From an uncultured Candidatus Saccharibacteria bacterium (GTDB lineage: Bacteria > Patescibacteriota > Minisyncoccia > JAHISW01 > Tagabacteraceae): 64,000 bases of DNA. The stretch spans positions 34,376-98,375 of the forward strand of contig CAZRMW010000001.1 in assembly GCA_964601305.1 (NCBI GenBank), read 5' to 3'. The notes beneath the pieces are model-generated. The model was not told where the DNA came from. It was given only the letters and a program-made list of their open reading frames with translations, and made no database searches. The position numbers and the translations under genes are program-made. Positions within the stretch are counted from its first letter, which is position 1. Each line of letters starts with the position of its first letter. This document shows, in pieces, positions 2,974-41,410 of the stretch.

Positions 2974-2992
2974 AGTGCCCAAAAAATTTACA

Positions 2993-3030
2993 ACACTCCA
3001 ACATTCTCAAGAATGTTGGAGTGTTTTTTT
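2993..3030. terminator. 32-bp palindrome ACACTCCAACATTCT..AGAATGTTGGAGTGT plus T-run; member of a repeated palindrome family (see 7401..7434)
   Basis: Perfect inverted repeat between convergent genes, followed by TTTTTTT. Confidence 0.6.
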
Positions 3031-3042
3031 ATGCAAAATAAG

Positions 3043-6000
3043 CTAAAACAACCCCTCCGGCGATGTGGTAGCTGTGTTTTCTATCCATTCAATAAGAGTT
3101 GCGGTGATAGCCGAAAGACCATCTCCAAGTACGCCGAGTAAATTGTTTTCAAAAGTAACATTACTTAAACTCGTCGTAGAATTTTCTACTACAACAGCTG
3201 CCTTCGTACCCCACGGCCCACTGTAGTTATGCTCTTCAAATCTCGCATTTTCTATACTCACATTTTCAGAATTTACAGCACGAATCCCATGAGGATAATT
3301 ATTTTTAAATAAAGCATTTGCTATCTGCGCTGTAGACCCTTCTAGCAAAATACCCGCTTTGTCTCTTCCTCCAGACATTACGCTCCCCGCATACTTCATA
3401 GTAAATCCACTTGCCACAAGAGATCCAGTTTCGGAAATATTTATCCCAGCAAACTGCCCAGCTTGAGGCATCGTAGATGTTTCATCGTTGTTAGAATCCC
3501 CACTTATCTCATCGTCATAAATACTTGTAAAAATTATGTCACTCGGATTCTGTCCATCTATTACAAAATTTCCGTTTACATTTAATGTTTTCTCTCCACC
3601 CTTTATTACCACTCCGTTTTCAATAGTTAATTGCGAAGATTCTACTACCGTCGGAGTCTCATATCCATTTAAATAATAAGGTATATCATTTGATTTTAAA
3701 GTTTTTGTTGAATTAGTATTAGTTAAATTTCCCCAAATATTAATGGAGTTGGGATTGTTATTTGACCCACTGTTTCCAGAAAAACTTCCCAGCTCTCCCG
3801 AGGAATAAATTGCACCTCCAGAATTAGAAGTAAAAGTATTGTTATTTGCGATTGTATTTGAATTGCTTAAATAAAGTCCTCTTAAATTTTCTAAAAAAGT
3901 ATTATTGTTTATTGTCGGCTCTCCATTTTCTGTGTATACACCATCAGCCTCATTGCCCTCAAAAACAGAGTTTGCAATTTGCGAATTAGAATTTTTTAAT
4001 CTCAAACCATAAACTTTTGAATATTTAAAACTGGAATTAGATACAGATATTTCTGGCCCCCAAGAGACAAGCAATGATTTATCAAAAGAGTTGTTATAAT
4101 ATTTTCCACCATAGCTAAAATTAGTATATTCAAAAATAGATCCATTTTCTGCATTTTCGTTTATGCAAATACCAAACCAATCTCCAGGATTAGGATTTTC
4201 TTGAGCACTCGTAAAAGCTATTGGCTCACTCTCTGTGCCTTGTGCCAAGATTTTTCCCAGAATATTAAACCCCGAATCTCCATTAAACTTAATTTCAACT
4301 CCAGGCTCTACGGTTAATAAAACTCCACTTTCAACAACTGCGTTTATATTGTCCACCAACACTGGATTGTTTAGTCTTCTTATTGTTAAATTTCTATCTA
4401 TATTTTTATTTATAGTTAGTATGCTATTTACACTATTTGCAAATTTCGGAGTACCTTTGTTTCCTAAAAAATCATTGTTTGTGTACCAGTTTTCTGTATC
4501 GTATCTTTCCATTGTATATTTATCTGTATCTCCTGCAGGCCACGCCCCCTCTGGTGTACTATCTATTGTTGTAGTAGCTGTCGAAGTAGCTTGCACCAAA
4601 ACTAATCTCTCTCCACTATTACTAAGCCCATTTCCAAAAGACCCTATATAATCTGCTTCCACATCTGGCACTGAGGTATCGTCCGTTCTTTCTATCAAAT
4701 AATACTCGCCCGACCCAAGAGTACCTGACAAATTTATATATGGTCCGTTGTCTGTTTCTGAAAAAAGTACCCAGCCATCCAAATCTATTCCGTTTTCTGT
4801 ATTATTAAAAAGTTCTATCCATTCATCGTAAGCCGAGTTGTCCGTACCCGCCCATGCGATTTCGTTTATTAAAATCGAATGCTCTGCAAAAACTTCTTCA
4901 GGTGTTTCAGGTGTCGTGCTTGCTGTTTCTGGTGTAGTCGTAGCAACTTCTGAAGTTGAATCTTCCTCTGGAAGTTCAACCTCGCTAATTGAGTCGTCTT
5001 CTATAACAGGCGCCTCCTGAGGATTGTTTGGGGAAGAAACACTTTTTGTTGCAACAACTATCGAGGTCGAACCTCTATAGCGAGGTTCAACCTCACTAAT
5101 TAAGTTGTTGTCTTTTGTGTCCGCCATTGTTTCCACAACTGCAAAAACAGCAGAAACCGCAGTATATTCTTTTTCCTGTTTTTGTGTAGCCCTTTGATTT
5201 GCTTGTTTTTCATCTTTTTCAAAGGTTGAATCTTTATCTTGAAAATTTAGCTTTGAAGTTGTACTTCCTTCAGGAAGTCCAACTTCGTTAATTAAATCAT
5301 TCGTTTGATCTTTTTTTTCTTTGTCAAAAACATCTTTAATTTTGTTGCCAACATTTTTTATTGCTCCCCAAAACCTTGAGCCACTACCCGGTAAAAAATC
5401 TTCTGCAATTGTTATGAGCGCTGTTTTAGGCACAGGCGGTTTTTCTAGTAACGATTCGTCGTTTCGAGCCTTCTCTACTTCTTGAAAGAATAAATTAATT
5501 GCCCCTGCCACGGATATGACTGCCTCACGAGATAAACGGTTCCAGTAGCCCTGGAGGATCGGTTTGTAATCTTCATTGTCGTCCTCCAACTCATACTCTG
5601 CCAACTTCTTTTCACCGTCTTTGTCCCATACCTCCTTTGTTCTTGCCAATTTAAAATAACTTCCATCTTTATCAACACCAAAGCCATATTCATCTCCATC
5701 TATTATTTCTGGCTTATTATACCTTTCATAGCCCTCGCCATTTGCAGTATCTTTACTTAAAAAATAATTATTAGAATAATTTGCTAAATAATCAAAATAT
5801 TCTTCTATGCTCTCAAGAGAAGCTGGCTCATAACTATTTAAGCTATCCGCAATTTTAAAATTTTCTATATTAAATTGTTTTGAAAAATTTTCAAGGGGGC
5901 TATCTCCAGGGTGTGGGTCATTTCTGGTGTGTTCTGGCACGGCCATATCTTCTAGTAAATGCAGAGTAAATCCAAGAGTATAAAACGCGTCTTTTTCATT

Positions 6001-6444
6001 TCCCTTTACGTACTCATAAATTGCTTTTTTCCATGCTTTGTTTCCTTTTGGCATATGAGTATTCATTTGTAGGCCTTGGCTTGTAGCCCACTGCTTTGCT
6101 GTGTTAAGTCCCCTATCCCCAAAAAGGCCTTCGTTGTAAACTGGATCATAAAAATGGTGCATCCATCTTGGTGGAGTGTCTTCGTCTATGGCCCCTTCTA
6201 TTATCCACTCTTTTTGTTTGTCTGTAATACTTCTCTCAAAATTAATATTATAAAAATTTATAGCTTCGTTTGTAAGTGCTGGATGAGTAGTTTTATCGTC
6301 CCAACTAAAAACAGTCTGAGCCCCAAAGCCCAAACTGCTTAAGTAAAACACAAATATTAAAATAAAATTTATTTTTCTGTTCATCCCACTAGAAATTTTC
6401 TTTTTCATGTTTTTAATTTTTTTATTTCTATTAGAGTAATTCAT
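3043..6444 (-). CDS. large secreted multidomain protein: signal peptide, Zn-dependent phospholipase C / S1-P1 nuclease-like domain, lamin-tail domain, right-handed beta-helix repeats
   Basis: N-terminal basic/hydrophobic signal peptide. WDDKTTHPALTNEAI, HHFYDPV and LHLLEDMAVPEHT match the Zn-PLC signature (W-x-x-E/D-x-H, HFYDP, LH-x-x-D). INEIAWAGTDNSAYDEWIELFN is a lamin-tail-domain signature. N-rich repeats (NNNTFLENLRGLYLSNSNTIANNNTFTSNSGG) are pectate-lyase-like beta-helix. Confidence 0.8.
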   Translation of the reverse strand: MNYSNRNKKIKNMKKKISSGMNRKINFILIFVFYLSSLGFGAQTVFSWDDKTTHPALTNEAINFYNINFERSITDKQKEWIIEGAIDEDTPPRWMHHFYDPVYNEGLFGDRGLNTAKQWATSQGLQMNTHMPKGNKAWKKAIYEYVKGNEKDAFYTLGFTLHLLEDMAVPEHTRNDPHPGDSPLENFSKQFNIENFKIADSLNSYEPASLESIEEYFDYLANYSNNYFLSKDTANGEGYERYNKPEIIDGDEYGFGVDKDGSYFKLARTKEVWDKDGEKKLAEYELEDDNEDYKPILQGYWNRLSREAVISVAGAINLFFQEVEKARNDESLLEKPPVPKTALITIAEDFLPGSGSRFWGAIKNVGNKIKDVFDKEKKDQTNDLINEVGLPEGSTTSKLNFQDKDSTFEKDEKQANQRATQKQEKEYTAVSAVFAVVETMADTKDNNLISEVEPRYRGSTSIVVATKSVSSPNNPQEAPVIEDDSISEVELPEEDSTSEVATTTPETASTTPETPEEVFAEHSILINEIAWAGTDNSAYDEWIELFNNTENGIDLDGWVLFSETDNGPYINLSGTLGSGEYYLIERTDDTSVPDVEADYIGSFGNGLSNSGERLVLVQATSTATTTIDSTPEGAWPAGDTDKYTMERYDTENWYTNNDFLGNKGTPKFANSVNSILTINKNIDRNLTIRRLNNPVLVDNINAVVESGVLLTVEPGVEIKFNGDSGFNILGKILAQGTESEPIAFTSAQENPNPGDWFGICINENAENGSIFEYTNFSYGGKYYNNSFDKSLLVSWGPEISVSNSSFKYSKVYGLRLKNSNSQIANSVFEGNEADGVYTENGEPTINNNTFLENLRGLYLSNSNTIANNNTFTSNSGGAIYSSGELGSFSGNSGSNNNPNSINIWGNLTNTNSTKTLKSNDIPYYLNGYETPTVVESSQLTIENGVVIKGGEKTLNVNGNFVIDGQNPSDIIFTSIYDDEISGDSNNDETSTMPQAGQFAGINISETGSLVASGFTMKYAGSVMSGGRDKAGILLEGSTAQIANALFKNNYPHGIRAVNSENVSIENARFEEHNYSGPWGTKAAVVVENSTTSLSNVTFENNLLGVLGDGLSAITATLIEWIENTATTSPEGLF

Positions 6445-6948: not shown

Positions 6949-7096
6949 AAATCTTGTCCGCCTCCGGCGGATTAATTAATAAAAACCTAGCAAGTATTAA
7001 CACAGTATGTCAACACCCGTCACTAATAATTTTATATTTCAATGTTCTAACCATTCCTCACACCCCACACAAAACATTCTAACATTCTATAGAATA

Positions 7097-7375
7097 TTAG
7101 AATGTTTTTATAAACTTCACAAATTTTTTACCATAAGGAGAAAGAAAATGCTCCACAGACCTACCTTTGTATTTTTTGTTTACAAGTCCAGCGAGCGTCA
7201 AACGCCTAGAATGCTGAGAGGCTGTTTTCATATGGCAATTAAGTTCATCTGAAATTTGATCTACCGTGATCCCTTCATTTTTATGAACCAAAAGCAATAT
7301 ATCAATCCTCCAATGATTAGCAGCGCCTTTAAAATGTCTTTCTAGTTGTTTTGATGTTTTTACTCTATTTTTCAT
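7097..7375 (-). CDS. winged-HTH transcriptional regulator (ArsR/SmtB-like)
   Basis: 92 aa; HTH segment ITVDQISDELNCHMKTASQHSRRLTLAGLV; flanked on both sides by related palindromes. Confidence 0.6.
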   Translation of the reverse strand: MKNRVKTSKQLERHFKGAANHWRIDILLLVHKNEGITVDQISDELNCHMKTASQHSRRLTLAGLVNKKYKGRSVEHFLSPYGKKFVKFIKTF

Positions 7376-7400
7376 GTTTTCATCCTACCACATCATATAA

Positions 7401-7434
7401 AATACTCCAACATTCTATAGAATGTTGGAGTATT
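7401..7434. promoter_or_regulatory. perfect 34-bp palindrome AATACTCCAACATTCTA|TAGAATGTTGGAGTATT, 26 nt upstream of the ArsR-like gene (candidate operator and/or terminator of the upstream gene)
   Basis: Perfect inverted repeat; near-identical to 2993..3024, with a degenerate nested copy at 7074..7106 overlapping the regulator stop codon. Confidence 0.45.
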
Positions 7435-7500
7435 TTAATTTGTTTAATCTGCGAAAAACAAAAAGCCGGTGGTAAAACCACCGACCCTATAATATATTTT

Positions 7501-8148
7501 TTAAAGTAAATTTGCCTTTCTCATCCACCAAAATTTGTTTTTATTGAAGTTCTCTGCCTCAAGATTATAAAACCCCATAGCAACATCCATCTCGTCGTCT
7601 ATAACATCTTTCTGAAAAGAAGGTACCCGATCGGTATCTACAAGTTTTTTTAAACTCAAATATTCCCACTTGTTATGTTTGCATTGGTTTTTAGAATCTT
7701 TTAAATTTTCTATTCTTCCTTCTATTTTCCAAGAAAAAACTCCTAAAAACTCCCACCATTCTTTTTTATTTTTTACTATCAAGTAGCCACACCACACTCC
7801 TAAAAAGTTCCAAAAAACATCTGAAATACTCACCATATTGTCAATTGTAACCTCTTTCAGAAAAGAAGTTATTATCATAAGAACAACGCCCATCAAAACA
7901 GAGATTTTCAATCCATAGCTAAATCTTTTAAATAAAATAAAGAAAAAAGTTACTCCCAAAAAACAAGTCAAAAAATGGACTACAAAATTTAATGACTTTA
8001 ATAAGTATAAATCTTCTTTTGAAAAAGATATGTTTAAAATCCAGTCTTTAAAAACAAAAAAAGAAACAACGACTAAAAATACTCCACAAAAAAGAAAAAT
8101 TATTAACTCATTCAAACTTCTCTCGTTTTCTATTTCTTCCATTTTCAA
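7501..8148 (-). CDS. polytopic membrane protein, unknown function
   Basis: 215 aa with about 4 hydrophobic helices and a cytoplasmic C-terminal tail. Confidence 0.45.
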   Translation of the reverse strand: MKMEEIENERSLNELIIFLFCGVFLVVVSFFVFKDWILNISFSKEDLYLLKSLNFVVHFLTCFLGVTFFFILFKRFSYGLKISVLMGVVLMIITSFLKEVTIDNMVSISDVFWNFLGVWCGYLIVKNKKEWWEFLGVFSWKIEGRIENLKDSKNQCKHNKWEYLSLKKLVDTDRVPSFQKDVIDDEMDVAMGFYNLEAENFNKNKFWWMRKANLL

Positions 8149-8431: not shown

Positions 8432-9184
8432 CTATTTCTCGTACTCTCTACGGGTATTCCACCAAGCACAGTGTTCGCAATCTTTTCCAGAAGCCGGCAT
8501 CTCGCCACTCTCCAAGCATTTTTTGATTTCAAAAAGTTTTGGCTCCACCCAAGAGTCGTTGCCCTCATAAGGAATAAGCACTACATCAAATTCTATTTTT
8601 TTATCAAAAGATTTTTCGTCAGCCCGGCCCGTGCAATATACAAAATAACTAGTATCTGAAACTTTTAGCCCATTTTGCCTAAGAAGCCATTGGTACACTT
8701 CCATTTGTTTTTTGTAGCCCTCGTGCCATTTACCAGCAAGCTCTTTTACAGGCTCCGCCTTCGCGGTTGCTTTGTAGTCTACTACTATATACTCCCCGTT
8801 TTCATTTATCCAAAGGTCGTCTATGGCCCCAGACACAGTAAGCCCCGTAGGTTCATGCTTATACTCTACCCCTTCAAAGTTTTCTCGCCATGTATTTATT
8901 TTTTCGTGCTGTGCTGGTTTTACCTTGAGCTCGTATTCTTTCTGAAGTGGGTGCTGTGTGTTTTCTGCTCTATGAATATCAAACTCTTGTTTAAGCTGAT
9001 AGTCCACTGCACTATTTAAAAGAAAGGCTGGCAACGGCACTCTTTTTGTGCCAAGTTTATTGTCTATATAGAAACAGCGTGGGCACCCACAAAACAAGTC
9101 GATTTTAGATCGACTAAGCCTCCACTTGTCTCCACCGTAATTCCACATGGCACTTCTTTTAGAGTTGTATCCGTAATTTGTCAT
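8432..9184 (-). CDS. PD-(D/E)xK nuclease, Cas4/RecB-like (DUF83-type) with Cys clusters
   Basis: Motifs IDDLWINENGEYIVVDYKAT (D...E-x-K) and QMEVYQWLL (QxxxY), with N-terminal CGCPRC and C-terminal CEHCAW cysteines as in Cas4 Fe-S nucleases; no cas genes or CRISPR array nearby. Confidence 0.6.
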   Translation of the reverse strand: MTNYGYNSKRSAMWNYGGDKWRLSRSKIDLFCGCPRCFYIDNKLGTKRVPLPAFLLNSAVDYQLKQEFDIHRAENTQHPLQKEYELKVKPAQHEKINTWRENFEGVEYKHEPTGLTVSGAIDDLWINENGEYIVVDYKATAKAEPVKELAGKWHEGYKKQMEVYQWLLRQNGLKVSDTSYFVYCTGRADEKSFDKKIEFDVVLIPYEGNDSWVEPKLFEIKKCLESGEMPASGKDCEHCAWWNTRREYEK

Positions 9185-13393: not shown

Positions 13394-13440
13394 AAGCTTA
13401 TTATATCACAAATTCAAACACTTTTGGTATATCTACACCA

Positions 13441-13467
13441 AAATAACGGAGTTGAACTCCGTTATTT
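13441..13467. terminator. palindromic hairpin AAATAACGGAGTTGAACTCCGTTATTT (repeated at 17431..17458)
   Basis: Perfect inverted repeat plus T-run downstream of the 13477..14673 gene; second copy 4 kb away. Confidence 0.5.
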
Positions 13468-13476
13468 TCTGTTATT

Positions 13477-14673
13477 TTATTTTCTACCTCTCTTAAACGC
13501 TTTTATAAAGACATCTTCTATTATATCAAAATCTTCTATCCCCAAAGAAACTCTCAAGAGATACGGATCTATTCCTATTCTCTTCTTTTTTATTTCAGAG
13601 ACTTGCGCGTGTGTCATGTAAAAAGGGTTACAAAACATAGTATCTGTGCACCCTAAGCTTACAGCAAAAGCAATACCGCTTTTTATCAAAGAATTTACAA
13701 ATTTTTCCAAGTCTACACTTTTATTGTTTAAAACAAAAGATACGACACCCCCAAAAGCAAAATCTTCAGAAACATGCAGGCTTCCAACACAAGAAGGATT
13801 CCTTACTCTCAAAGCTTCAACCATAGAATACTCAGCCTCTTCTGAAAAAGGTAGGTTTAATCTTCCTGGATAAAAAACTTTTTCTACTTCTCCTGTTTTT
13901 ACTTTTTTTTCTATAAAATTTGCAAACAAAAGTGCGTTTATACCATGCCTTTCCATTCGTAAATTAAAAGTCTCAAGCCCTCTCATTAATAAAGTGCAGT
14001 AATCTGGAGACAAAATTCCACCCAAAGCAGTTCTCATTTCTCTTATTTTTTCGAAATACCCCTCATCATTTGTAGCAACAATCCCAGCCAACAAATCACC
14101 ATGCCCGTTTAAATACTTTGACGCACTTTCAACAACAATATCTATGCCGTGTAATATCGGTATCTGAAAGAAAGGTGTAGCAAAAGTATTGTCTATTATA
14201 CTTATGCTCCCTGTTTTTTTTGACACTTTGGCAATACCAGATAAATTAACCATCTCAAGGCAAGGATTATTTGGACTTTCTGTAAAAACAAATTTAGGAG
14301 TATTTGTATGAATTGCCCTTTCAAATTCTTTCACACCTCGTCTTAAAACTGTTGTTCCAAGGTTGGGTAAATTTTCTGAAAAGAATTTATCTGAACCACC
14401 ATACAAAACATCTCCTACCAAACAAACATCTCCAGTTCTAGAAAAAGCTAAAATCGTAGATATAATAGCAGCCATACCTGAAGAAAAAACCAAAGCATAT
14501 TTTGCACCCTCAAGTTCTGCTATCTTTTTCTCTGCTTCAACAAAACTTGGGTTATTCACTCTTGTGTAGGCAAATCCCTCTTTTTCCCCAAAAAAAACAT
14601 CTCTAGCTTCTTTTAAAGAACTAAAGCCAAAAGCACTTGTTCTAGAAATATCGGGCCTGTGATTTTTATTCAT
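13477..14673 (-). CDS. Cys/Met-metabolism PLP-dependent enzyme (cystathionine gamma-synthase / methionine gamma-lyase family)
   Basis: 398 aa; VVESASKYLNGHGDLLAGIV matches the S-x-T/S-K-y-x-x-G-H PLP-lysine motif of this family. Confidence 0.75.
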   Translation of the reverse strand: MNKNHRPDISRTSAFGFSSLKEARDVFFGEKEGFAYTRVNNPSFVEAEKKIAELEGAKYALVFSSGMAAIISTILAFSRTGDVCLVGDVLYGGSDKFFSENLPNLGTTVLRRGVKEFERAIHTNTPKFVFTESPNNPCLEMVNLSGIAKVSKKTGSISIIDNTFATPFFQIPILHGIDIVVESASKYLNGHGDLLAGIVATNDEGYFEKIREMRTALGGILSPDYCTLLMRGLETFNLRMERHGINALLFANFIEKKVKTGEVEKVFYPGRLNLPFSEEAEYSMVEALRVRNPSCVGSLHVSEDFAFGGVVSFVLNNKSVDLEKFVNSLIKSGIAFAVSLGCTDTMFCNPFYMTHAQVSEIKKKRIGIDPYLLRVSLGIEDFDIIEDVFIKAFKRGRK

Positions 14674-14733
14674 CTTTTCCTCCTATTTAGTTATCAAGGT
14701 TTATATAGATATGTTATAATAAATAACATAAAA

Positions 14734-16575
14734 ATGGTAGAGAAAGTATCAAAACAAATCGCAGTTATTATGCTTGGAACAATGTTTCTACTATTGTTTT
14801 TTTCCGCATGGGGAGATTCTGCCACAATGGACGAATTGGCGCACATCCCTGCTGGATACTCATATCTTTCAGAGCAAGACTTTCGTATAAACCCTGAGCA
14901 CCCCCCACTTATAAAAGATTTGTCTGCTATTCCATTAATGTTTCTAAATCTCAATTTTCCTACTGACGATCCATCATGGACAGTGGCTATAAACGGACAG
15001 TGGGACTTGGGGCGAATATTTATTTACGAATCTGGCAACGATGCAGACCAAATAATATTTTGGTCTCGCCTACCAATAATGCTTTTAGCAATCCTGTTTG
15101 GATGGATGTTTTTCAAATGGATACGCGGACTTTATGGCGACAAAGTTGCACTTCTTGCTCTTTTCTTTTTTGTATCTTCACCTACATTTTTAGCGCATTC
15201 TAGATATGTTACCACGGACTTGGCTGCAGCATTTGGATTTTTCATTGGATTAGCCTCGTTTATAAATTTTATCCGGAGAGATACAAAAAAAGATTTGATC
15301 ATTGCTGGAATAGCTTTTGGGGTAGCTCAACTATTAAAATTTTCTTTAGTAATACTTGTTCCTATATATATTATTTTGGGCATACTTTGGGTTTTCCTAA
15401 AAAATTATGAAAATTTTGCTTTTGGCAAATTCATAAAAGAATCTCTTGTAATAGGTGGGAAAATAATTCTTATTGGATTAATTGGGTTAGCAATAGTGTG
15501 GCCTACATATGTATACCACACTTGGAATTATCCCATGGAAAGACAAGTTTCGGATATGTCTCATATCTTAAACACTTTTAGAGTTAAAATAATTTCCAAT
15601 TCTGTAATATGGATGGCGAGCATGCCAAGCCTCCGCGCACTTGGAGAGTACTTATTTGGTATTTTGATGGTTATGCAAAGAGCAGCAGGAGGAAATAATG
15701 TCTTTCTTCTTGGAGAAGTTGCAAACAAAGGTTGGCCAATTTATTTTCCTCTTCTTTATTTACTAAAAGAACATTTAGCTTTAAATATTCTGGCTTTAAT
15801 TTCTATGCTATTTGGCCTAAACAACATCAGAAAAAGCAAGGATAAAAATTTAAAAACTTTTTTTGCATGGCTAAAAGATAATTTTGCTCTCACTACTAGT
15901 TTTATTTTTATTGCTATTTATTGGGCTCAAGCAATTACTAGTCCGCTAAATATTGGAGTACGGCATGTGCTACCAACTTTTCCATTTATTTATTTATTAA
16001 TATCCAGACAAACCATACGCTGGGTGAAAGGTTATTCCTTGGAAACTCCTTCAGATTTTTTGGGCGCACTAAAAAGTTTTTACAGAAACTATTTAAGGCC
16101 ACTTAAAAGGGGTCTTTGTTTGATATTGCTTTTGTCGTGGATGGCTATAGCTACGCTCATTACATATCCACACTATCTTTCTTATTACAACGAGCTTGGT
16201 GGTGGCACCTGGAATGGATACAAAATAGCCGTAGACTCAAACTACGATTGGGGGCAAGACTTGAAAAGACTTGTAGCTTTTTTTGAAACTGTTCCTGAAA
16301 GTGAAAAACAAAATGGAATAGCTATAGATTATTTTGGAGGTGGAAATCCCCACTATTATTTTGGAGACCAAGCAAAGATTTGGCACTCAAATACAGGTAG
16401 TCCTATAGACCATGGAATTACTTGGTTTGCAGTATCTGCTACATTTTTTCAAGAATCTCGAGCAGTGCCAGTAAAAGGTTTTATTCGTTTACCCGAAGAT
16501 ACATTTAGCTGGCTAGGAGACAAAAAACCCGTCGCCCGCGCAGGCACTTCTATATTTATATACAAATTTGAGTAA
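14734..16575 (+). CDS. GT-C fold glycosyltransferase, PMT/ArnT-like (GT39/GT83 family)
   Basis: ATMDELAH (DE motif of PMT/ArnT) in the first periplasmic loop, more than 10 TM helices, C-terminal soluble domain. ATG 14734 preferred over GTG 14659 (track start), which overlaps the upstream gene. Confidence 0.65.
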   Translation: MVEKVSKQIAVIMLGTMFLLLFFSAWGDSATMDELAHIPAGYSYLSEQDFRINPEHPPLIKDLSAIPLMFLNLNFPTDDPSWTVAINGQWDLGRIFIYESGNDADQIIFWSRLPIMLLAILFGWMFFKWIRGLYGDKVALLALFFFVSSPTFLAHSRYVTTDLAAAFGFFIGLASFINFIRRDTKKDLIIAGIAFGVAQLLKFSLVILVPIYIILGILWVFLKNYENFAFGKFIKESLVIGGKIILIGLIGLAIVWPTYVYHTWNYPMERQVSDMSHILNTFRVKIISNSVIWMASMPSLRALGEYLFGILMVMQRAAGGNNVFLLGEVANKGWPIYFPLLYLLKEHLALNILALISMLFGLNNIRKSKDKNLKTFFAWLKDNFALTTSFIFIAIYWAQAITSPLNIGVRHVLPTFPFIYLLISRQTIRWVKGYSLETPSDFLGALKSFYRNYLRPLKRGLCLILLLSWMAIATLITYPHYLSYYNELGGGTWNGYKIAVDSNYDWGQDLKRLVAFFETVPESEKQNGIAIDYFGGGNPHYYFGDQAKIWHSNTGSPIDHGITWFAVSATFFQESRAVPVKGFIRLPEDTFSWLGDKKPVARAGTSIFIYKFE

Positions 16576-16582
16576 TATTCGC

Positions 16583-16661
16583 CTAATATGGTGAAAATCA
16601 CCCGAGATTTCACCATATTAAACAAAAAATCGCCAGTTGAGCTTAGCCCAACTGGCGATTT
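16583..16661. repeat. conserved 54-nt hairpin repeat (ATATGGTGAAAATCACC..GAGATTTCACCATAT) followed by terminator hairpin; second copy at 17468..17548
   Basis: 54-nt stretch almost identical at both loci; each lies 3' of a small-membrane-protein gene, followed by a GC hairpin plus T-run. Confidence 0.5.
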
Positions 16662-16665
16662 AATT

Positions 16666-17034
16666 TTATTGTATTTTTCTCCTGTAAAGAATGGAAAAAA
16701 AGATTGAATAACCGAAGAACACCCCAGACATAACCCAAGCAAACAAAAATCCAATACTATCTACGGGTCGAGGAAAAATAAAGCCCAAAAAAAGAAACAC
16801 AATACCAACCACTAAGGTATACGACGCCTGCCAAAACCAATCGTCAAGTTTTGCTTTTTTGTCCTCATTCAAATCACCTACTCTTATTTCTCTAAACTTA
16901 AACTTGTCTTCCACAGCACCCTCCTTTTGTGTTTTTATTAAAATTTCAATTCCCATGCTATAGTAAAGCATCTGTCCCCTTTTCCCACACATCACACAGA
17001 CAGGGCCTGTGCATATAAGTAAACAAGTATACAA
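16666..17034 (-). CDS. small membrane protein (possibly the C-terminal half of a frameshifted gene with 16958..17275)
   Basis: 122-aa ORF with 2-3 TM helices; overlaps 16958..17275 by 77 nt in another frame; Cys-rich N-terminus CTGPVCVMCG. Confidence 0.4.
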   Translation of the reverse strand: MYTCLLICTGPVCVMCGKRGQMLYYSMGIEILIKTQKEGAVEDKFKFREIRVGDLNEDKKAKLDDWFWQASYTLVVGIVFLFLGFIFPRPVDSIGFLFAWVMSGVFFGYSIFFSILYRRKIQ

Positions 17035-17275
17035 GCGAAAGAAAAAATGGAATAAAAGTAAAAATCAAAAAAAATGAACTATAACTATTAAAAAATAAGA
17101 AAAAAAGATCTACTAACAAAAAAATAAAACCAATAAAAAAAGAAAAAACTCCATTTGTTAATGCACTTAAATATTGGGTATCAATTTGCCTTATTTTTTC
17201 ATCTTTCAAATAATCAAAACTAAATTCTTTGAAAGAAAAATTTTTTCTTGCTTTTAACAATTTTTGGTAAAACAC
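16958..17275 (-). CDS. small membrane protein, paralog of 17556..17906
   Basis: N-terminus KLLKARKNFSFKEFSFDYLKDEKI resembles KILKYNKFRDFGLEDFNKEEAGI of 17556..17906; conserved upstream promoter repeat. Confidence 0.4.
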   Translation of the reverse strand: MFYQKLLKARKNFSFKEFSFDYLKDEKIRQIDTQYLSALTNGVFSFFIGFIFLLVDLFFLFFNSYSSFFLIFTFIPFFLSLVYLFTYMHRPCLCDVWEKGTDALL

Positions 17276-17320
17276 AATGAACCTCCTTAGTTGTTAGTTT
17301 ATTTTTATTTTTCAAAATAC

Positions 17321-17395
17321 ACTTCCCTTTTTGTAGTTTTCTCTAAATTTTATACCACAAATTGTTTTTCAACACAATGGTAACCTATCTAGTGC
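17321..17395 (-). promoter_or_regulatory. conserved promoter repeat (minus strand: -35 TTGTGT, 17-nt spacer, TGG-TATAAAAT extended -10)
   Basis: About 70-nt repeat nearly identical to 17922..17998, containing TATACCACAAATT on the plus strand (reverse complement AATTTGTGGTATAAAAT). Confidence 0.45.
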
Positions 17396-17430
17396 TATAG
17401 CAGATGTCGTGTTCCATTTTTAAAATAACA

Positions 17431-17548
17431 AAATAACGGAGTTCAACTCCGTTATTTTAAATATTAGCTAATATGGTGAAAATCACCAGAGATTTCACCA
17501 TATTAAACAAAAAACCGCCAGGCCTTTTCAGGTTCTGGTGGTTTAAAT
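17431..17548. repeat. composite of three hairpins: AAATAACGGAGTTCAACTCCGTTATTT palindrome, conserved 54-nt ATATGGTGAAA hairpin, and terminator
   Basis: Repeat copies of 13441..13467 and 16583..16636; T-runs on both strands. Confidence 0.45.
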
Positions 17549-17555
17549 TTATCTG

Positions 17556-17906
17556 TTATTTTTTCTTGGGGCAAAAATGACAAGTTTCTGCACCTCTTTT
17601 TACTTCCCCTTCGCAAGTAGTACATATCTTTACTTTTTTGTTTTGATCTTTGACTGTATACCTCAAATAACATCCTACAAAAAAAAGAAAAATCGAGAAA
17701 ACAAGATTGGTGATACTTATCGCCCATATTACCCGCATACTAAAATCTTGTAGGAATAAAAATCCACTTCCCACACATACATACAAATACACAGCCACGA
17801 GAATTCGAAATATGCCAGCCTCTTCTTTGTTAAAATCTTCAAGCCCAAAATCCCTGAATTTATTATATTTCAAAATCTTCTTTCCTATTAATTCTGGCAT
17901 TAGCAT
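17556..17906 (-). CDS. small membrane protein with C-terminal Zn-ribbon (CTTCEGEV...CHFC)
   Basis: 116 aa, 2 TM helices, four C-terminal Cys in CxxC...CxxC arrangement. Confidence 0.5.
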   Translation of the reverse strand: MLMPELIGKKILKYNKFRDFGLEDFNKEEAGIFRILVAVYLYVCVGSGFLFLQDFSMRVIWAISITNLVFSIFLFFVGCYLRYTVKDQNKKVKICTTCEGEVKRGAETCHFCPKKK

Positions 17907-17921
17907 AGTACCCCCTTTTTC

Positions 17922-17998
17922 CCAATTTTTTGTATTTTTAAATTCTCTAAATTTTATACCACAAATTATTTTGAATTACAATGGTAACCTATCCACTG
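17922..17998 (-). promoter_or_regulatory. conserved promoter repeat (minus strand: TTGTAA, 17 nt, TGG-TATAAAAT)
   Basis: Sigma70-like -35/-10 with extended -10; duplicate of 17321..17395. Confidence 0.45.
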
Positions 17999-18099
17999 CT
18001 ATCGCTTTAAATAGGTTCCATTTTCTATCCTCTCAATTTCTCACGCTTGTCCGCCTTTGGAGGAATCGTAGTATTTAGAGAGAATAGAAAAAATTAAAT

Positions 18100-18141
18100 A
18101 ATCACACAACTGTGGCTATAACTTGAGTTGTGTGATTTTTG
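18100..18141. terminator. hairpin AATCACACAACT...AGTTGTGTGATT plus T-run
   Basis: 12-bp perfect stem downstream of capA. Confidence 0.5.
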
Positions 18142-18179
18142 TTAAAATCAGCGAGACTAGCGAGGTTCAACCTCACTAG

Positions 18180-19199
18180 TTAATTTGTTAACTCCGGCTG
18201 ATAAAACTTATTTAATTTTGTTTTTAATTGTTTTACTGCAACTATTTCATTGTCTAACAAATACACCTTTAAAACTAATCCCCGCATAGTCTCCTCTGAA
18301 AAATTTTGATCGAAGATAAAATTACCCAAACTATACGCTATCACCCCTCCATTATAACTTTCTATTTCTTGCACAACATGCGGATGGTGCCCTACTACTA
18401 TCTTCGCCCCATTATCTATTGCTGTCCTAGCTAAATATTTTTGTCTTTCATTAGATTTGTTTTTATATTCCTCACCAAAATGAAAAGACACAACAAGAAC
18501 ATCTACACCTCTACTTGCACGCTTTATAATATCTTCAAAATTATTTTTTATAGATAAAATTCCTGAACTATCAGCACCCGCCAAAAACCAATCCGCCCCT
18601 ACATCAGAAAACCCAACAAAACCAATTTTAACTCCGTCTCTTTCTAATATTTTTACAGCACTAGCATCTTCAAAATCCATCCCTCCTCCAACAGGCAAGA
18701 TCCCTTTGTTTTTTAACCTAAAAATATTTTCCTCAAACGCTTCCTTCCCCCAATCTGCAATATGGTTATTAGCAACAGACAGCACATCGAACCCAGCTTC
18801 ATAAAGTACATTGAGCACATCCGGATTAAACTTAAAAGAATAGACACTTCCAACATCTTTACCCGCAAGAGAAATTGGTCCCTCTAGATTTCCAAAAGCA
18901 ATGTCGGCCTCTTTTAAAAAATCAACATTGTTAAAAAGAAAAGAAAAATCACCATTAAAATTTTTAGATATTGACTCTTCTACTCCCCTGCTAAGCATAA
19001 TATCACCAACAAAAACAAGTTCCACACTTTTTGTGTTTTTAAGAGTAGCGGTATTGTTTTTGTTTGAAAAATAAAAAAACGAAGACGAACCAGACACCCT
19101 ATTAAAATCACCTAAAAAATAAAAAACACTCATTGGAACAAAAAAACCCAACAACAACACAAAAGCCCCCCAAACTATTTCTTTATTTTTTATTTCCAT
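18180..19199 (-). CDS. CapA-family metallophosphoesterase (poly-gamma-glutamate/capsule biosynthesis-type)
   Basis: VGDIMLSRGV, LSVANNHIADWG and GHHPHVVQ metallophosphatase motifs typical of CapA/PGA_cap; N-terminal TM. Confidence 0.8.
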   Translation of the reverse strand: MEIKNKEIVWGAFVLLLGFFVPMSVFYFLGDFNRVSGSSSFFYFSNKNNTATLKNTKSVELVFVGDIMLSRGVEESISKNFNGDFSFLFNNVDFLKEADIAFGNLEGPISLAGKDVGSVYSFKFNPDVLNVLYEAGFDVLSVANNHIADWGKEAFEENIFRLKNKGILPVGGGMDFEDASAVKILERDGVKIGFVGFSDVGADWFLAGADSSGILSIKNNFEDIIKRASRGVDVLVVSFHFGEEYKNKSNERQKYLARTAIDNGAKIVVGHHPHVVQEIESYNGGVIAYSLGNFIFDQNFSEETMRGLVLKVYLLDNEIVAVKQLKTKLNKFYQPELTN

Positions 19200-19975
19200 T
19201 TAAAAAATACTTTTTTACCGAACCTTAAATCTATGTACTCAAAATCTTTAGAGTTTTTTTCAGACAACTCTTCCCAAAACAAACTAAAATTATTAAACAA
19301 ATAATCCACGTCGTCTTTTATATTTATGGTGATATACCATCCTTCCTCTAAATAAAACTTGCAAACATTATTGTCTTCTAAATAAATTTCTTTTATAGAA
19401 AAACTATCTTCTAGCTTATTTTTAAATTCTAAAATTTTATTAAAATCTTCTTCATTCATTATAAATTTTCCCTTGCTTATTTCACTGCTTCTTTTATCCA
19501 TAAATTTTATTAAAACACCAGAAGAAAAAATAGGAGCTCTTTCATAAGCAAGCCCGCTTTTGTCCACAAAAAAACAATCCTCATCACAAAAAACTGCCAC
19601 AGGCTCTCTTTCTTTTGCAAAAATTAAAATACTAGACAACGAGGTTCTTTCTATTTCTAGTGTTTCAATGTTCGTAAATTTTGAAAGCAAACCATCTTTT
19701 ACTTCCTCCACTTGAAAAGAAAAGATTCTATTTTTAGGCACTACACCAAAAAATTTGCTAGATAAAATTCTATCTATTTCATACCCCAAAATCTCTTTTT
19801 GTTTTGAAGAGGAAGTTTCTATGGCAACATCTTTGATCTTCAAATCTTCTATAAAAAAGAGTGACCAGAAGATACCAACAGCAACAAAAATCAAAACAAC
19901 AAAAAAAAGAATCCAGCGCAAAAAAGCCCTTTTTCTTTTTTTATGCCTTACAGACGAAAGAATGTTTTTAGGCAT
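19190..19975 (-). CDS. FtsQ/DivIB-like cell-division protein (TM plus POTRA-like)
   Basis: Basic cytoplasmic N-terminus, single TM, then IKDVAIETSS...: POTRA-like start; overlaps capA start by 10 nt. Confidence 0.5.
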   Translation of the reverse strand: MPKNILSSVRHKKRKRAFLRWILFFVVLIFVAVGIFWSLFFIEDLKIKDVAIETSSSKQKEILGYEIDRILSSKFFGVVPKNRIFSFQVEEVKDGLLSKFTNIETLEIERTSLSSILIFAKEREPVAVFCDEDCFFVDKSGLAYERAPIFSSGVLIKFMDKRSSEISKGKFIMNEEDFNKILEFKNKLEDSFSIKEIYLEDNNVCKFYLEEGWYITINIKDDVDYLFNNFSLFWEELSEKNSKDFEYIDLRFGKKVFFKWK

Positions 19976-21236
19976 TTGAAATTGTTTCTTTTCCTAAATA
20001 TTTTTGCAAAGCTTCGGGTATTTTTATAGAGCCGTCTTGCTGTTGATTGTTTTCTAATAACGAAATCAAAATTCTCGGAGTTGCTATTACCGTATTATTT
20101 AAAGAGTGAGCAAAAAAAATCTTTCCATCTTTTGTTTTGTATCTTGTGTTTAGTCGTCTTGTTTGAAAATCATGAAAATAAGAAGAAGAGTGAGTTTCGC
20201 CATATGCTTTTTTGCTGGGTATCCAACCTTCTATATCGTATTTTTTTACCTGGCCTTGCCCTAAGTCTCCACCACAATTTACAACAACCCTAAAAGGTAT
20301 GCCGAGTTTTCTCATAAATTTTTCTGAATTGTTAGTAATTTCTTCATGCCATTTTACAGACTCTTGGTGATCGGCTTTGCACAAAATTACTTGCTCTACT
20401 TTCATAAACTCGTGAAGTCTATATAGTCCCTTTGTGTCTTTTCCGTGGCTTCCTGCTTCTCTTCTAAAACACGGTGAAAATGCTACGTATTTTTTTGGCA
20501 ACTCTTCTTCCTTCAAAATTTCATCAGCATGATACCCCATCATTGGCACTTCTGCTGTGCCAGCCAAAAACAATTCGTCCTGAGTTTGGTAAATTTCGTC
20601 TTTGCCGTGCGGTAGCCAGCCTGTTCCCTTAAAACTATCTTCACGCGTCATAGATGGTGCTAAAAACGGCACAAATCCTTCTTCAACCATATGCTCAAAA
20701 GCCAGTTGCCAAACAGCAAGCGCCAAAAGCGCCCCTTCGTTTTTTAAAAAATAACCGCGAAATCCAGACACCTTTGTTCCTCTTTCAAAATCCACTAAAT
20801 CCAAATCTTTCATAAGTTCCATATGATCTTTTGGTTCAAAATTGAAAACTGGAAGCTCTCCCCATTTTCTTATTTCTTTATTATCTGCGTCTGTTTCCCC
20901 TTCTGGCACAGATGGATCCGGAATGTTTGGCACATTTAGCATCATAGCTTTCCACTTTTCCATAACATCTTTCAATTCTTTTTCTATTTGAGCAAGCCTG
21001 TCTTTTAAAACTTTCATCTCGTTTATAAGTCTTTGCCTTTCGTCTTCGTCTTTTGTTTTAGAAATTTTGTCTGTAGATTCGTTTTGCTCAGCCCTAAGCT
21101 TTTCAGTATCTTGAATAAGCCTTCGGCGAATATCGTCTAGTTCTAAGAGTTTATTTACATCAAAATCGATGTGCTTTTTTATAGCAGCATCTTTAATTAA
21201 GGTCTTGTGTTCTCTAATAAATTTAATATCTAACAT
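19968..21236 (-). CDS. serS: seryl-tRNA synthetase
   Basis: N-terminal coiled coil, class II motifs (FRREAGSHGKDTKGLYRLHEF, GETHSSS). Start placed at MLDIKFIREH (21236): the 16 upstream codons of the track ORF lie inside a repeat element. Confidence 0.9.
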   Translation of the reverse strand: MLDIKFIREHKTLIKDAAIKKHIDFDVNKLLELDDIRRRLIQDTEKLRAEQNESTDKISKTKDEDERQRLINEMKVLKDRLAQIEKELKDVMEKWKAMMLNVPNIPDPSVPEGETDADNKEIRKWGELPVFNFEPKDHMELMKDLDLVDFERGTKVSGFRGYFLKNEGALLALAVWQLAFEHMVEEGFVPFLAPSMTREDSFKGTGWLPHGKDEIYQTQDELFLAGTAEVPMMGYHADEILKEEELPKKYVAFSPCFRREAGSHGKDTKGLYRLHEFMKVEQVILCKADHQESVKWHEEITNNSEKFMRKLGIPFRVVVNCGGDLGQGQVKKYDIEGWIPSKKAYGETHSSSYFHDFQTRRLNTRYKTKDGKIFFAHSLNNTVIATPRILISLLENNQQQDGSIKIPEALQKYLGKETISNA

Positions 21237-21263
21237 TAGCTTTATATTACCAAAACCCCCACT

Positions 21264-21301
21264 TTTTGCAAAATAAAAAGCCACCCTGTCGCTAGAGCGG
21301 C
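21264..21301. repeat. 40-bp direct repeat TTTTTGCAAAATAAAAAGCCACCCTGTCGCYAGAGYGGC (second copy 22342..22381), terminator-like
   Basis: About 38/40 identical copies flanking a 1.1-kb segment containing one gene. Confidence 0.55.
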
Positions 21302-21336
21302 TTTTTAAATACTAAGTACGCAGAAAGTATGATTGT

Positions 21337-22002: not shown

Positions 22003-22399
22003 TTTTCATTCCTTTTTGTGTTGTTATGTTGTGAAAGTCCGAATAGCTTCCATAAAAAAACTACCATTAAAATATATATTTTGTCAAATTACTGTACTAG
22101 AAGGGTACATAAATAACACTTATCGCTACACCGAAGACCGTCTTCGATGTAAATTACATAGACACCATTTCTTTTATTTTCATCAAATCAGCCACAGACC
22201 AACTTTTTAAAAATTTTTCATACTCTCTTTTGCTTTTAAATTGATCTAAAATAATATCTGTTCCAGAAAGTATCCAATCTTCATAATCTTTGTATAGAAA
22301 ATGTTTGATTCTACATCGACATCGGGTGTCGACGCAAGTGGTTTTTGCAAAATAAAAAGCCACCCTGTCGCCAGAGTGGCCATATAAACCAAAAACTTA

Positions 22400-26501: not shown

Positions 26502-27611
26502 TTAAAGAGTAAATTTATCTAACCAGCTTTTCATACTAGATTCTTCTGTTCTAACAATTGTAGGAATATCATCTACTTTTTCTTCATTCTCTTTTATCTC
26601 GTCTCCCACCTTTTCCTTTTCTTGCTCTGGTTCTTGCTCGGAACTTAGACTGTCTTTTTCTTGAGGTTGAACCTCCTTTGGCGGTTCAACCTCGCTAATT
26701 GAATCCGTCGTCGTTAGAATCTCTTCAATCTCCCCTGTTTCTTGAGGCACAGTACCTTCAGCAACAACAGCAGCACCTACTTTCATTAAAAAGTTTTTTA
26801 GATCATCCTCAGAGAAAAACTCCATAGAAATTTTTTTAACAGGTCCCTTTTTCTCAACAGAAACTCTTGTTCCCAGAGCATCTGAAAGTTTTCTTTCCAA
26901 ATTGCCTGCTTCTGGATCTTCTCTTCTCTCCAACTTTATTTTAGCCTTAGTTTTATTTTTAAGAATTTCACGCGCGAGATGCTCTGTAGCCCTCACATTC
27001 ATTTTTCTAAAAATAATTTCTTTGTATAATTCTTTCTGATCATCTTCGTGCTTTATTAAACTTAAAAGTGGCCTCGTGTGCCCTTCTCTAATAAGCCCTG
27101 CTTTTAGCCCTTCTTGCATATCTTCCGGCAAGCTCAAAAGTCGAATAGTGTTTGAAACAAATTCTCTACTCTTACCTACTTTTAGGCCAACTTCATGATG
27201 GCGCATTTTAAAATTGTCCACCAATTGCTTAAAAGCTACAGCTCTTTCTATTGGACTTAAGTCTTCTCTTTGTATATTTTCTATTAAAGCAAGTTCTAAT
27301 TTTACTTGATCTGAAGGTTCTTCTCTAATAATTACTGGCACTTGAGTAAGCCCCGCAATTTGAGACGCACGCCACCTTCTTTCTCCTGCAATAATTTCAT
27401 ATTCTATTATAGTGCCTGTTGGCACTTCTTTTTCTCGACGGATAACTACAAGTGGCTGCAAAACGCCGTATTGCCGAATAGATTCTGAAAGCTCGTTTAG
27501 CTTGTCTTCATTAAAAATACTACGAGGCTGAAAAGTATTTGGCTTTATTTTGTCTACTTCAACAAAAAAAACCCCGCTTTCTTTTCTTATTCTTGGAAGT
27601 TCGTTGTTCAT
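26502..27611 (-). CDS. parB: ParB/Spo0J partition protein with acidic low-complexity C-terminal tail
   Basis: GERRWRASQIAGLTQVPVIIRE ParB box; start at MNNELP (27611); tail region contains an inserted palindromic element (TDSISEVEPPKEVQPQ). Confidence 0.85.
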   Translation of the reverse strand: MNNELPRIRKESGVFFVEVDKIKPNTFQPRSIFNEDKLNELSESIRQYGVLQPLVVIRREKEVPTGTIIEYEIIAGERRWRASQIAGLTQVPVIIREEPSDQVKLELALIENIQREDLSPIERAVAFKQLVDNFKMRHHEVGLKVGKSREFVSNTIRLLSLPEDMQEGLKAGLIREGHTRPLLSLIKHEDDQKELYKEIIFRKMNVRATEHLAREILKNKTKAKIKLERREDPEAGNLERKLSDALGTRVSVEKKGPVKKISMEFFSEDDLKNFLMKVGAAVVAEGTVPQETGEIEEILTTTDSISEVEPPKEVQPQEKDSLSSEQEPEQEKEKVGDEIKENEEKVDDIPTIVRTEESSMKSWLDKFTL

Positions 27612-27667
27612 TGATTTTATTATACAAAAATTGACCAAACGAGGCAAATTTTATATTATAAATTTAG

Positions 27668-34074: not shown

Positions 34075-34422
34075 ATGAACGAAAAAAATTTTGAAAGATA
34101 TTGTCCAAAATGCAACAAAAAAGCTGAAAAGTGCAATCAATCCATTTTTAGAGTAATTAGCTGGTTCAGCACAGTAAAAAGAATTGATATAATCTATTTT
34201 CTTTGCAGTAATTGTCGATTAGTTTATATAGACAAAAGTATTGTTTTAAAAATTATAAGTGATTTTAGAAGATCTTTGAGAAAAGACCAGAGAAAGAAAC
34301 TTTCCCACCTAGAGACGTACCAGAGAATTTTAAAAACACTAGAAAAAGATATTTCAGAATTTAGAGTAAATCGTCTTGGATATAGAAAAGTAGATCGTTT
34401 CAACAAAAAGCCTAGCAAATGA
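34075..34422 (+). CDS. hypothetical Cys-rich (Zn-ribbon-like) basic protein
   Basis: 115-aa ORF with CPKC...C and CSNC; opposite strand to its neighbours. Confidence 0.3.
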   Translation: MNEKNFERYCPKCNKKAEKCNQSIFRVISWFSTVKRIDIIYFLCSNCRLVYIDKSIVLKIISDFRRSLRKDQRKKLSHLETYQRILKTLEKDISEFRVNRLGYRKVDRFNKKPSK

Positions 34423-40790: not shown

Positions 40791-40816
40791 TGAGTAAGTT
40801 TGAGCGAGGTCCAACC

Positions 40817-41410
40817 TCACTCATTTAAAATTTTGTCGATTAGAGCGGCCGTTTTATCGACAGTTTTAACCGGATTATTATAAAAATTATACCGCACAAC
40901 CCCCTTTTTGTCGACAATGACAAGGTGGGGCCAACCTCCTAACCCATACGAAGCTGTCGCCTTTATAACTCCAGACCCATGTTGTTTTTTGCTAACAATC
41001 AAGACCGTCGATAAAAAAGGTCCAAACTTTGTCTTAAACCCTTCAAACTCTTGAGGGTTTTTTGATGTCCACGGCACGCCCACAACTTTCACATCCTCGC
41101 GCGACTCATACTTTTCCGCCAGTTTATTCAGAACTTTGACCTGCTCACGGCAGAGAGGCGCACCAGGTCACCAGAAAGCCAAAACAGTAACACTCCCTTT
41201 AGAAAACTCGGAGAATTTCACATTGTCTCCGGTATCAATATTGGTTGCCGTAAAATCCGGCGCCATTTTGTCCACTGCGGAATTTGTTTCAACAACAACC
41301 ACCGGAGTGTCCTCTTCCACGGAAGTATTGAAGGCACCTGCTGTGCCAACAAAAAGAAGTGAGAAAATCGCCATCGCCAGAATCGTTAGAGTTAAAAGTC
41401 TCGTTTTCAT
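40817..41410 (-). pseudogene. disrupted thioredoxin-fold (TlpA/AhpC-TSA-like) secreted protein gene, GC-rich
   Basis: N-terminal part (signal peptide ...APDFTATNIDTGDNVKFSEFSKGSVTVLAFW) stops at an in-frame TGA exactly where the redox motif is expected (FW-TGA-PGAPLCREQ). C-terminal part (VKVVGVPW...GWPHLVIVDKKGVV) is in another ORF. GC content clearly above its neighbours. Confidence 0.5.

Follow-up and report, generated by a model that had tools for sequence, protein, structure and literature searches.

The 64-kb window analysed here, by which we mean the whole stretch of 64,000 nucleotides (positions 34,376 to 98,375 of contig CAZRMW010000001.1, assembly GCA_964601305.1) from an uncultured Candidatus Saccharibacteria bacterium, contains a duplicated module, which has capA on one side and a convergently oriented PMT_2 glycosyltransferase gene on the other. 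Our best explanation, to which we give a probability of about 0.5, is that the module is a tandem array of three paralogous genes for small two-pass membrane proteins, lineage-specific and placed in a variable slot, whose flanks would be duplicated promoter and terminator signals fused to palindromes that resemble repetitive extragenic palindromic (REP) elements. The duplication itself is confirmed and lies far beyond chance. A direct-repeat search found an upstream block at 17339-17401 and again at 17943-18005 (63 nt, 87% identity), together with a 3′ block at 16583-16636 and again at 17468-17521 (54 nt, 96% identity). BLAST and MAFFT, with which the boundaries of the 3′ block were set, extend the latter to ~100 nt, from just past the stop codons to 10 nt beyond the hairpin. 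Pattern searches allowing up to 3 mismatches recovered exactly two copies of each block in the 64-kb window and approximately none in shuffled controls. An earlier reading made from the letters alone (hereafter the sequence-only reading) had described two units, each with an upstream repeat, a membrane-protein gene and a nearly identical 54-nt 3′ hairpin, and this description is borne out.

The genes of the locus are all encoded on the minus strand, along which, from 5′ to 3′, the capA stop codon (18180) is followed by two hairpins, the upstream block, gene C, a stem-loop that we term Term1 (the second stem-loop of the 3′ block) and a conserved 37-nt palindrome that we term hairpin 2. Next come a generic terminator hairpin (17459..17429), the other upstream block, genes A and B′, and again Term1 and hairpin 2. 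The convergent PMT_2 gene occupies 14659..16575, its stop codon standing 8 nt from hairpin 2 of unit 1. With roughly even odds, the locus would comprise two co-directional transcription units, C alone (unit 2) and A-B′ (unit 1). In the order of the minus strand, the features are:

17981..18021, minus strand: upstream palindrome of unit 2, on the plus strand ATGGTAACCTAT-N18-ATAGGTTCCAT, abutting the -35 element; DNA fold z = -4.7
17943..17981, minus strand: putative core promoter of unit 2, -35 TTGTAA at 17981..17976, TGg plus -10 TATAAA at 17961..17953, predicted start ~17946
17556..17906, minus strand: gene C, 116 amino acids (aa), motif KFRDFGLEDFNKEE, two transmembrane (TM) helices, CxxC-x12-CxxC tail
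~17512-17544, both strands: Term1 stem of unit 2, A-tract and T-tract flanks, lower stem common to unit 1
17469..17505, both strands: hairpin 2 of unit 2, perfect stem of 13 bp around an 11-nt loop, neither strand having a U-tract after it
17429..17459, both strands: generic bidirectional terminator hairpin AAAATAACGGAGTTCAACTCCGTTATTTT between the units, with a second copy at 13439-13468
17377..17417, minus strand: decayed upstream palindrome of unit 1, promoter-proximal arm and loop remaining; DNA fold z = -0.08
17339..17377, minus strand: putative core promoter of unit 1, -35 TTGTGT at 17377..17372, TGg plus TATAAA at 17357..17349, predicted start ~17342
16958..17275, minus strand: gene A, 105 aa, GTG start after AAGGAGG, motif FSFKEFSFDYLKDEK, two TM helices
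16666..16914, minus strand: gene B′, 82 aa, GTG at 16914 after AAGGAGG-N5, motif KFKFREIRVGDLNEDK, two TM helices
16627..16661, both strands: bidirectional terminator Term1 of unit 1, 16 pairs and tail TTTTGTTTAAT in the minus-strand scan, folding on both strands
16584..16620, both strands: hairpin 2 of unit 1, 8 nt beyond the PMT_2 stop codon

The module holds three paralogues, C (17906..17556), A (17275..16958) and B′ (16914..16666), and not two as the sequence-only reading had it, though the paralogy and membrane character that it claimed both stand. We compared the six frames using a codon log-odds score trained on 28 long open reading frames (ORFs) of the window, and for each gene the annotated frame is the best (+0.07 to +0.16 bit/codon, against approximately -0.3 to -0.9 in the other frames). 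Strong Shine-Dalgarno sites are read at proper spacing before the starts of A and B′, and gene A is also annotated in the public assembly. Each of the three proteins shows two hydropathy peaks and K/R-rich termini, and an AlphaFold2 (AF2) model of C gives a helical hairpin (residues 27-51 and 55-91) at low confidence (pLDDT 60.6). The C-terminus of C carries the CxxC...CxxC pattern of a zinc-ribbon-like tail, as had been proposed for the protein of unit 2.

The proteins share ~25% amino-acid identity, compared with 87-96% for the flanks, and pairwise BLASTP matches among A, B and C are weak (E = 0.009-0.18). The best ungapped three-way alignment of the N-termini (YNKFRDFGLEDFNKEE / NFSFKEFSFDYLKDEK / KFKFREIRVGDLNEDK) scores 67, against 26 ± 9 in shuffles, and is equalled in 3 of 5000 shuffles. 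Therefore the paralogy of A, B′ and C is supported. The shared N-terminal motif is F-x-F-[KR]-[ED]-[FI]-x3-[DY]-[LF], and there is perhaps an even chance that it faces the cytoplasm. An exhaustive HMMER search of 1.84 billion protein representatives with a profile of the three paralogues returned only A, B and C; a word-index search for relatives of C returned C alone. Pfam, NCBIfam, PHROGs and PADLOC gave only sub-threshold noise for A, B and C. The three proteins form a family without known relatives.

The sequence-only reading had further seen in unit 1 a single gene split by a frameshift. ORF B as listed (16666..17034) does overlap A (16958..17275) by 77 nt. The overlap arises when ORF B is carried upstream past the GTG at 16914, its likely start, from which we count the gene as B′. 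With its own AAGGAGG-N5-GTG start, the supposed half-gene is better read as a third paralogue, so that no gene is split. A frameshift or a remnant of a zinc ribbon in the overlap was rejected: the B-frame extension gave no BLASTP alignment with the zinc-ribbon tail of C, and the codon score disfavours frame B there (-6.6 bits, against -1.8 bits for frame A). Sequencing error is excluded as well, because L011, an assembly from a different sample, has the very same sequence from 16400 to 18300 (100% identity).

The upstream block joins two elements of different kinds. Its promoter-proximal part reads TTGTGT (unit 1) or TTGTAA (unit 2), 17 nt and TGgTATAAA, a plausible sigma-70-type extended -10 promoter on the minus strand, in agreement with the promoter that had been predicted before. 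A consensus promoter scan did not flag this site because TATAAA lacks the final T. The predicted starts at ~17342 and ~17946 would leave 5′ untranslated regions of ~67 and ~40 nt, respectively. The distal part is a palindrome of 40 nt, ATGGAACCTAT-N18-ATAGGTTCCAT, whose loop is conserved. Identity between the two units is patchy: AAAATGGAAC is conserved at 10/10 positions beside a diverged patch (~2/10), C(G/T)ATAGCA..GATAGGTTACCATTGT at 24/27, the -35/spacer patch is diverged (1/5), and AATTTGTGGTATAAAATTTAGAG, which contains TGgTATAAA, is conserved at 23/23.

A profile built from both upstream blocks and searched using nhmmer found a third copy of the palindrome, the best preserved of the three, at 8728-8767 of locus L021, ~0.5 kb to the left of the window and ~18 kb from the module. 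On one side of it is the terminator of a 114-aa ORF, on the other a holB-like gene, and it comprises the distal palindrome only, the core promoter being found in the two units alone. The promoter repeat is thus a fusion of a core promoter with a dispersed palindromic element. The DNA-fold z is -6.0 in L021, -4.7 in unit 2 and -0.1 in unit 1, where one arm is lost. Two further candidates were discarded. A supposed third promoter copy at 2657-2672 is only a hexamer match within another ORF, and an invertible promoter (inverted repeat 17935-17952 / 18073-18090, 14/18), with a 9-nt perfect core and no recombinase, is put down to chance. On the plus strand, 18046-18147 carries a partial inverted copy of the -10/start region (TAGTAT..TTAGAGAGAA) with TTGTCC 16 nt upstream, pointing at a 15-bp hairpin (18097-18140) that is followed by TTTTTGTT; this element could be a short plus-strand RNA or the second terminator of capA.

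In the 3′ block, conservation runs from just past the stop codons through an A-tract, the lower stem of Term1, a T-run and hairpin 2 to 10 nt further on, and only the upper stem and loop of Term1 have diverged. Folding of the 100-nt 3′ segments gives z from -5.5 to -10.5, whichever strand is taken. Behind B′ the minus-strand scan flags a hairpin at 16661..16627 that resembles a terminator and has a T-run; Term1 of unit 2 is stable on folding and is adjoined by the run TTTTTTGTTT, but was not flagged by the scan. Compared with unit 1, Term1 of unit 2 has a compensatory change of one pair (U-A to C-G) and a G-U in place of one G-C, and such divergence with pairing kept is the behaviour expected of a purely structural element. 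Moreover, Term1 folds on both strands and has A-tract and T-tract flanks, as a shared bidirectional intrinsic terminator should, which agrees with the two-strand terminator of the sequence-only reading.

Hairpin 2 (ATATGGTGAAA-N11-TTTCACCATAT) spans 37 nt, its two 13-bp arms pairing perfectly across an 11-nt loop, and 36 of its 37 positions, loop included, are identical between the units. No U-tract directly follows it, the adjoining sequence being TAAACAAAAAA on the plus strand and TAG(G)C(G/T)AATATT on the minus strand, and the terminator scan flags neither. Hairpin 2 itself is therefore not a canonical terminator. Its constant sequence, set beside a Term1 that drifted in sequence but kept its structure, admits two readings: a target of sequence-specific recognition, or a repeat element whose own dynamics keep its copies alike. 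When hairpin 2 and Term1 were modelled together, the covariance model found no further copy, its weak matches being generic double hairpins. The hairpin palindrome found only unrelated chance palindromes (Prevotella, Clostridium and others) in a collection of genome contigs, and neither hairpin nor promoter patterns occurred in viral contigs or JGI metagenomes. The whole locus had no blastn match among phages and plasmids, and Rfam returned nothing over it at gathering or relaxed thresholds.

The gene order serS, ftsQ-like gene, capA, slot and convergent PMT_2 gene is kept in five related loci, where the slot is occupied as follows:

L018: empty
L012: a 63-aa ORF
L014: a Y1 transposase and a GNAT acetyltransferase
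L017: a protein of 143 aa carrying a zinc ribbon and a TM segment
L020: an MNT/HEPN-like pair and a membrane protein

Since the contents differ while the flanking order is kept, the module is a lineage-specific occupant of a variable accessory slot. Homologues of CapA place the organism in Patescibacteria (Paceibacteria-like), those of the closest other lineage being 67% identical.

Hairpins of other families are found in the same window, and pairs of hairpins stand behind further genes, capA among them. The family AAAATAACGGAGTTSAACTCCGTTATTTT comprises two near-identical (29/30) bidirectional terminators (13439-13468 and 17429-17458), 4 kb apart and behind unrelated genes, of which one separates the two units. 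Three long palindromes make up the family CTCCAACATTCTATAGAATGTTGGAG (2992-3025, 7071-7108 and 7398-7437), and two copies of this type bracket a small HTH_20/ArsR-like ORF (7097..7375). At least 7 copies of a third family, GAGGTTSAACCTC, occur in the window (4971-4983, 5063-5075, 5082-5094, 18162-18174, 26663-26675, 26681-26693 and 40806-40818). The window also holds the remnant of a Y1 (IS200/RAYT-like) transposase (22315..22163, minus strand), a C-terminal piece of 51 aa with 55% identity to an L017 protein (tblastn, E = 4e-13). Intact Y1_Tnp genes are present in relatives, where the hairpins beside them belong to another family; one such gene sits in the same slot amid hairpins. Taken together, the hairpin families, the Y1 remnant and the relatives' Y1_Tnp genes favour a REP-like reading of the palindromes.

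As we picture the array, a 40-nt palindrome of a dispersed family, abutting a sigma-70-type promoter (TTGTrw-17-TGgTATAAA), would place both units under common transcriptional control. Downstream, transcripts would meet a bidirectional intrinsic terminator and then the perfect 37-nt palindrome. Hairpin 2, if active, may act as an extra 3′ stem-loop or as an insulator for read-through transcripts, rather than as the gene of an antisense RNA. Promoter activity, co-regulation of the units and any role of the palindromes are inferred. If this explanation is true, the module belongs to the ordinary accessory genome as a strain-specific array of local interest. It would also be a clean example of promoter, terminator and palindrome anatomy in a phylum whose signals are poorly characterised, and the reversed conservation together with the several hairpin families hints that REP-like elements shape intergenic regions in reduced genomes.

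Four observations sit uneasily with this explanation. The codon scores of A, B′ and C (0.07-0.16 bit/codon) are below those of typical genes (0.38 ± 0.11). Hairpin 2 has kept its sequence, including the loop, while the adjacent terminator stem drifted, and this identity suggests sequence-specific recognition and not a mere stem-loop or relic. Moreover, only two copies of hairpin 2, both within the locus, occur in the ~80 kb of this genome and the 152 kb of loci that were searched. Lastly, the conserved 3′ block opens with a -10-like AATATT suitably spaced from the hairpin, which fits a plus-strand RNA.

Such an RNA is at the heart of the type I toxin-antitoxin (TA) arrangement, with convergent small RNAs, that the sequence-only reading had put forward. 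Each 3′ block would encode a plus-strand RNA of ~85 nt, type-I-TA-like or a cis-antisense regulator, made up of hairpin 2 as 5′ stem-loop, an A-rich linker and the shared terminator. By pairing with the 3′ end of the membrane-protein mRNA, the RNA would control how stable that mRNA is. We consider such RNAs unlikely, and a role of the membrane proteins as their toxic partners is similarly doubtful. On the plus strand, the two-hairpin architecture, the A-rich linker and the T-rich tail would suit such an RNA, the AATATT stands 5-6 nt before the hairpin, and in unit 2 a bidirectional terminator directly upstream would set such an RNA apart as a unit of its own. Of the G-U pairs in Term1, that of unit 2 fits the plus strand only and that of unit 1 favours the minus strand. 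Relatives do carry TA modules in or near the slot, namely the MNT/HEPN-like pair of L020 and HicAB in L018. The locus also recalls par (Fst/RNA II), where a hydrophobic-protein gene ends at a bidirectional terminator with a structured element beyond it; such loci combine a toxin of ~33 aa with promoters that converge on one shared bidirectional terminator, and their direct repeats (DRa/DRb) are complementary to the ribosome-binding site (RBS) of the toxin (PMC7472228). However, no sigma-70-like -35/-10 pair or extended -10 is found on the plus strand upstream of either hairpin, the -10-like AATATT being the only candidate there, and unit 1 is a two-gene operon. Type I TA toxins usually have ~30-60 aa and one TM helix, whereas the proteins here have 82-116 aa and two TM helices; Fst itself has 33 aa and a single helix (PMC7472228). 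No match to a toxin family, or to any antitoxin, was obtained from Rfam, Pfam, NCBIfam or PADLOC. The putative RNA shows no consistent complementarity to 5′ or RBS regions, unlike the repeats of par. In the duplex test of unit 1 the best pairing (-26.7 kcal/mol) falls in the 3′ coding part of B′ and is equalled by 17 of 300 shuffles, and in unit 2 as many as 122 of 300 shuffles do as well. Within that coding part, the 3′ half of hairpin 2 and the A-run recur at 16714-16749 as a degenerate direct copy (72%), which accounts for the only extended complementarity between the putative RNA and the mRNA. Small plus-strand ORFs starting within the hairpins (MVKITRDFTILNKK...) were also rejected, as they lack a Shine-Dalgarno site, continue past the terminator, show no TM peak and score inconsistently by codon usage. 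The alternative that the sequence-only reading itself offered, conserved 3′ structures, is closer to the evidence. That plus-strand small RNAs control large two-pass toxins in a tandem duplication, in what would be the first type-I-like or cis-antisense module in Patescibacteria, seems very unlikely. We know of no description of a type I-like system in Patescibacteria, and none of the papers listed by a literature search mentions the phylum. Were the RNA real, the locus would be of wider interest: its candidate toxins would be atypical, and the duplication would stand in an accessory hotspot where relatives hold other TA modules.

A second rival holds that hairpin 2 and the upstream palindrome are double-stranded DNA operators of a sequence-specific regulator, the upstream site co-regulating both promoters and the 3′ site acting as a roadblock or insulator between packed, convergent units. 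Hairpin 2 kept its sequence beside a drifting terminator stem, the patchy upstream pattern is footprint-like with a palindrome abutting the -35 element, a third upstream palindrome precedes another gene, and the half-sites appear to share ATGG(T)nA, a weak likeness read from the sequence. We nevertheless think operators improbable: half-site spacing of 24-30 bp is unusual for dimeric operators, the upstream palindrome of unit 1 has lost an arm, the known sites number two or three, and no regulator gene is adjacent, the nearest HTH ORF (7097..7375) being 10 kb off with another hairpin family around it. If the flanks were instead recombination handles, the locus would be a mini cassette array of variable membrane proteins in which gene conversion or cassette exchange between the flanks would keep these uniform while the coding cores are swapped or diversify. 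This would fit the reversed conservation (flanks at 87-96%, amino acids at ~25%), the divergence from about the transcription start to the upper terminator stem and the variability of the slot across relatives. Such handles are highly unlikely, given only two units, no recombinase or integrase seen beside the locus, no attC-like GTTRRRY core in hairpin 2, an upstream conservation too patchy for simple conversion tracts, no alternative cassettes in viral contigs or JGI metagenomes, and an L011 locus identical to that of the window. Hardly credible, in our view, is a decaying non-coding duplication of unexpressed ORFs whose protein similarity is compositional. The low codon scores, the weak pairwise BLASTP and the empty search of 1.84 billion representatives would agree with it. 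Against it, each annotated frame clearly outscores the other five, A and B′ have strong Shine-Dalgarno sites, all three proteins share the two-TM architecture, the motif score is significant (3/5000 shuffles), and a promoter-like site and a terminator frame each unit.

Several known systems resemble the tandem array in part. The txpA/RatA and bsrG/SR4 pairs are 3′-overlapping type I TA loci of comparable arrangement. REP, REPIN and BIME sequences, and Rickettsia-type palindromic elements, are short extragenic palindromes, and the palindromes of the locus are likewise 37-41 nt long, intergenic and beside terminators or promoters, and their copies keep identity at the level of sequence, loops included. 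The upstream palindrome has three copies in ~80 kb of genome, one of them ~18 kb away. Hairpin 2 differs in having two local copies at the same relative position, which may have been co-duplicated with the unit. No intact REP-associated tyrosine transposase (RAYT) flanked by the locus palindromes was found; the window holds only the 51-aa Y1 remnant, which is not so flanked. In the erp/ospEF loci of Borrelia, a conserved upstream region, the upstream homology box, precedes variable coding sequence. Here too the promoter region is far better conserved than the coding sequence of the paralogues, implying shared regulation of divergent small envelope proteins, but the locus has two promoters in one genome and no sequence relationship to those of Borrelia. 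Lastly, a short gene followed by a palindrome, in tandem and in a variable slot, recalls integron cassettes with attC sites; each unit here has its own putative promoter, there are two units only, and GTTRRRY stands at neither end of hairpin 2. No integrase was seen near the locus among the neighbours capA, the ftsQ-like gene, serS and PMT_2, a survey that did not extend to screening the whole window for intI.

Some smaller observations concern the neighbourhood and the other hairpin families. Beyond the module, L011 is identical to the window in the compared intervals 14315-15781 and 15813-20000 except for 6 differences in 18250-18499. Its serS (window 20000-21250) has 203 differing positions, up to 68 per 250 nt, reflecting either a recombined allele or a chimeric assembly. 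The Y1 remnant is preceded by an 89% copy of a 47-nt sequence that spans the serS start (21263-21309 / 22342-22388), and the serS and Y1-remnant ORFs both begin MAFYFAK. In L014, GAGGTTSAACCTC-type hairpins (7020-7050, 7266-7295, 7577-7610 and 7788-7815) surround and interrupt the Y1 transposase gene. Most GAGGTTSAACCTC copies in the window lie in frame inside coding regions, where ORFs 3043..6444 and 26502..27647 gain peptides of the type (D)SISEVE(L/P)P, an in-frame insertion like that of the Rickettsia palindromic elements.

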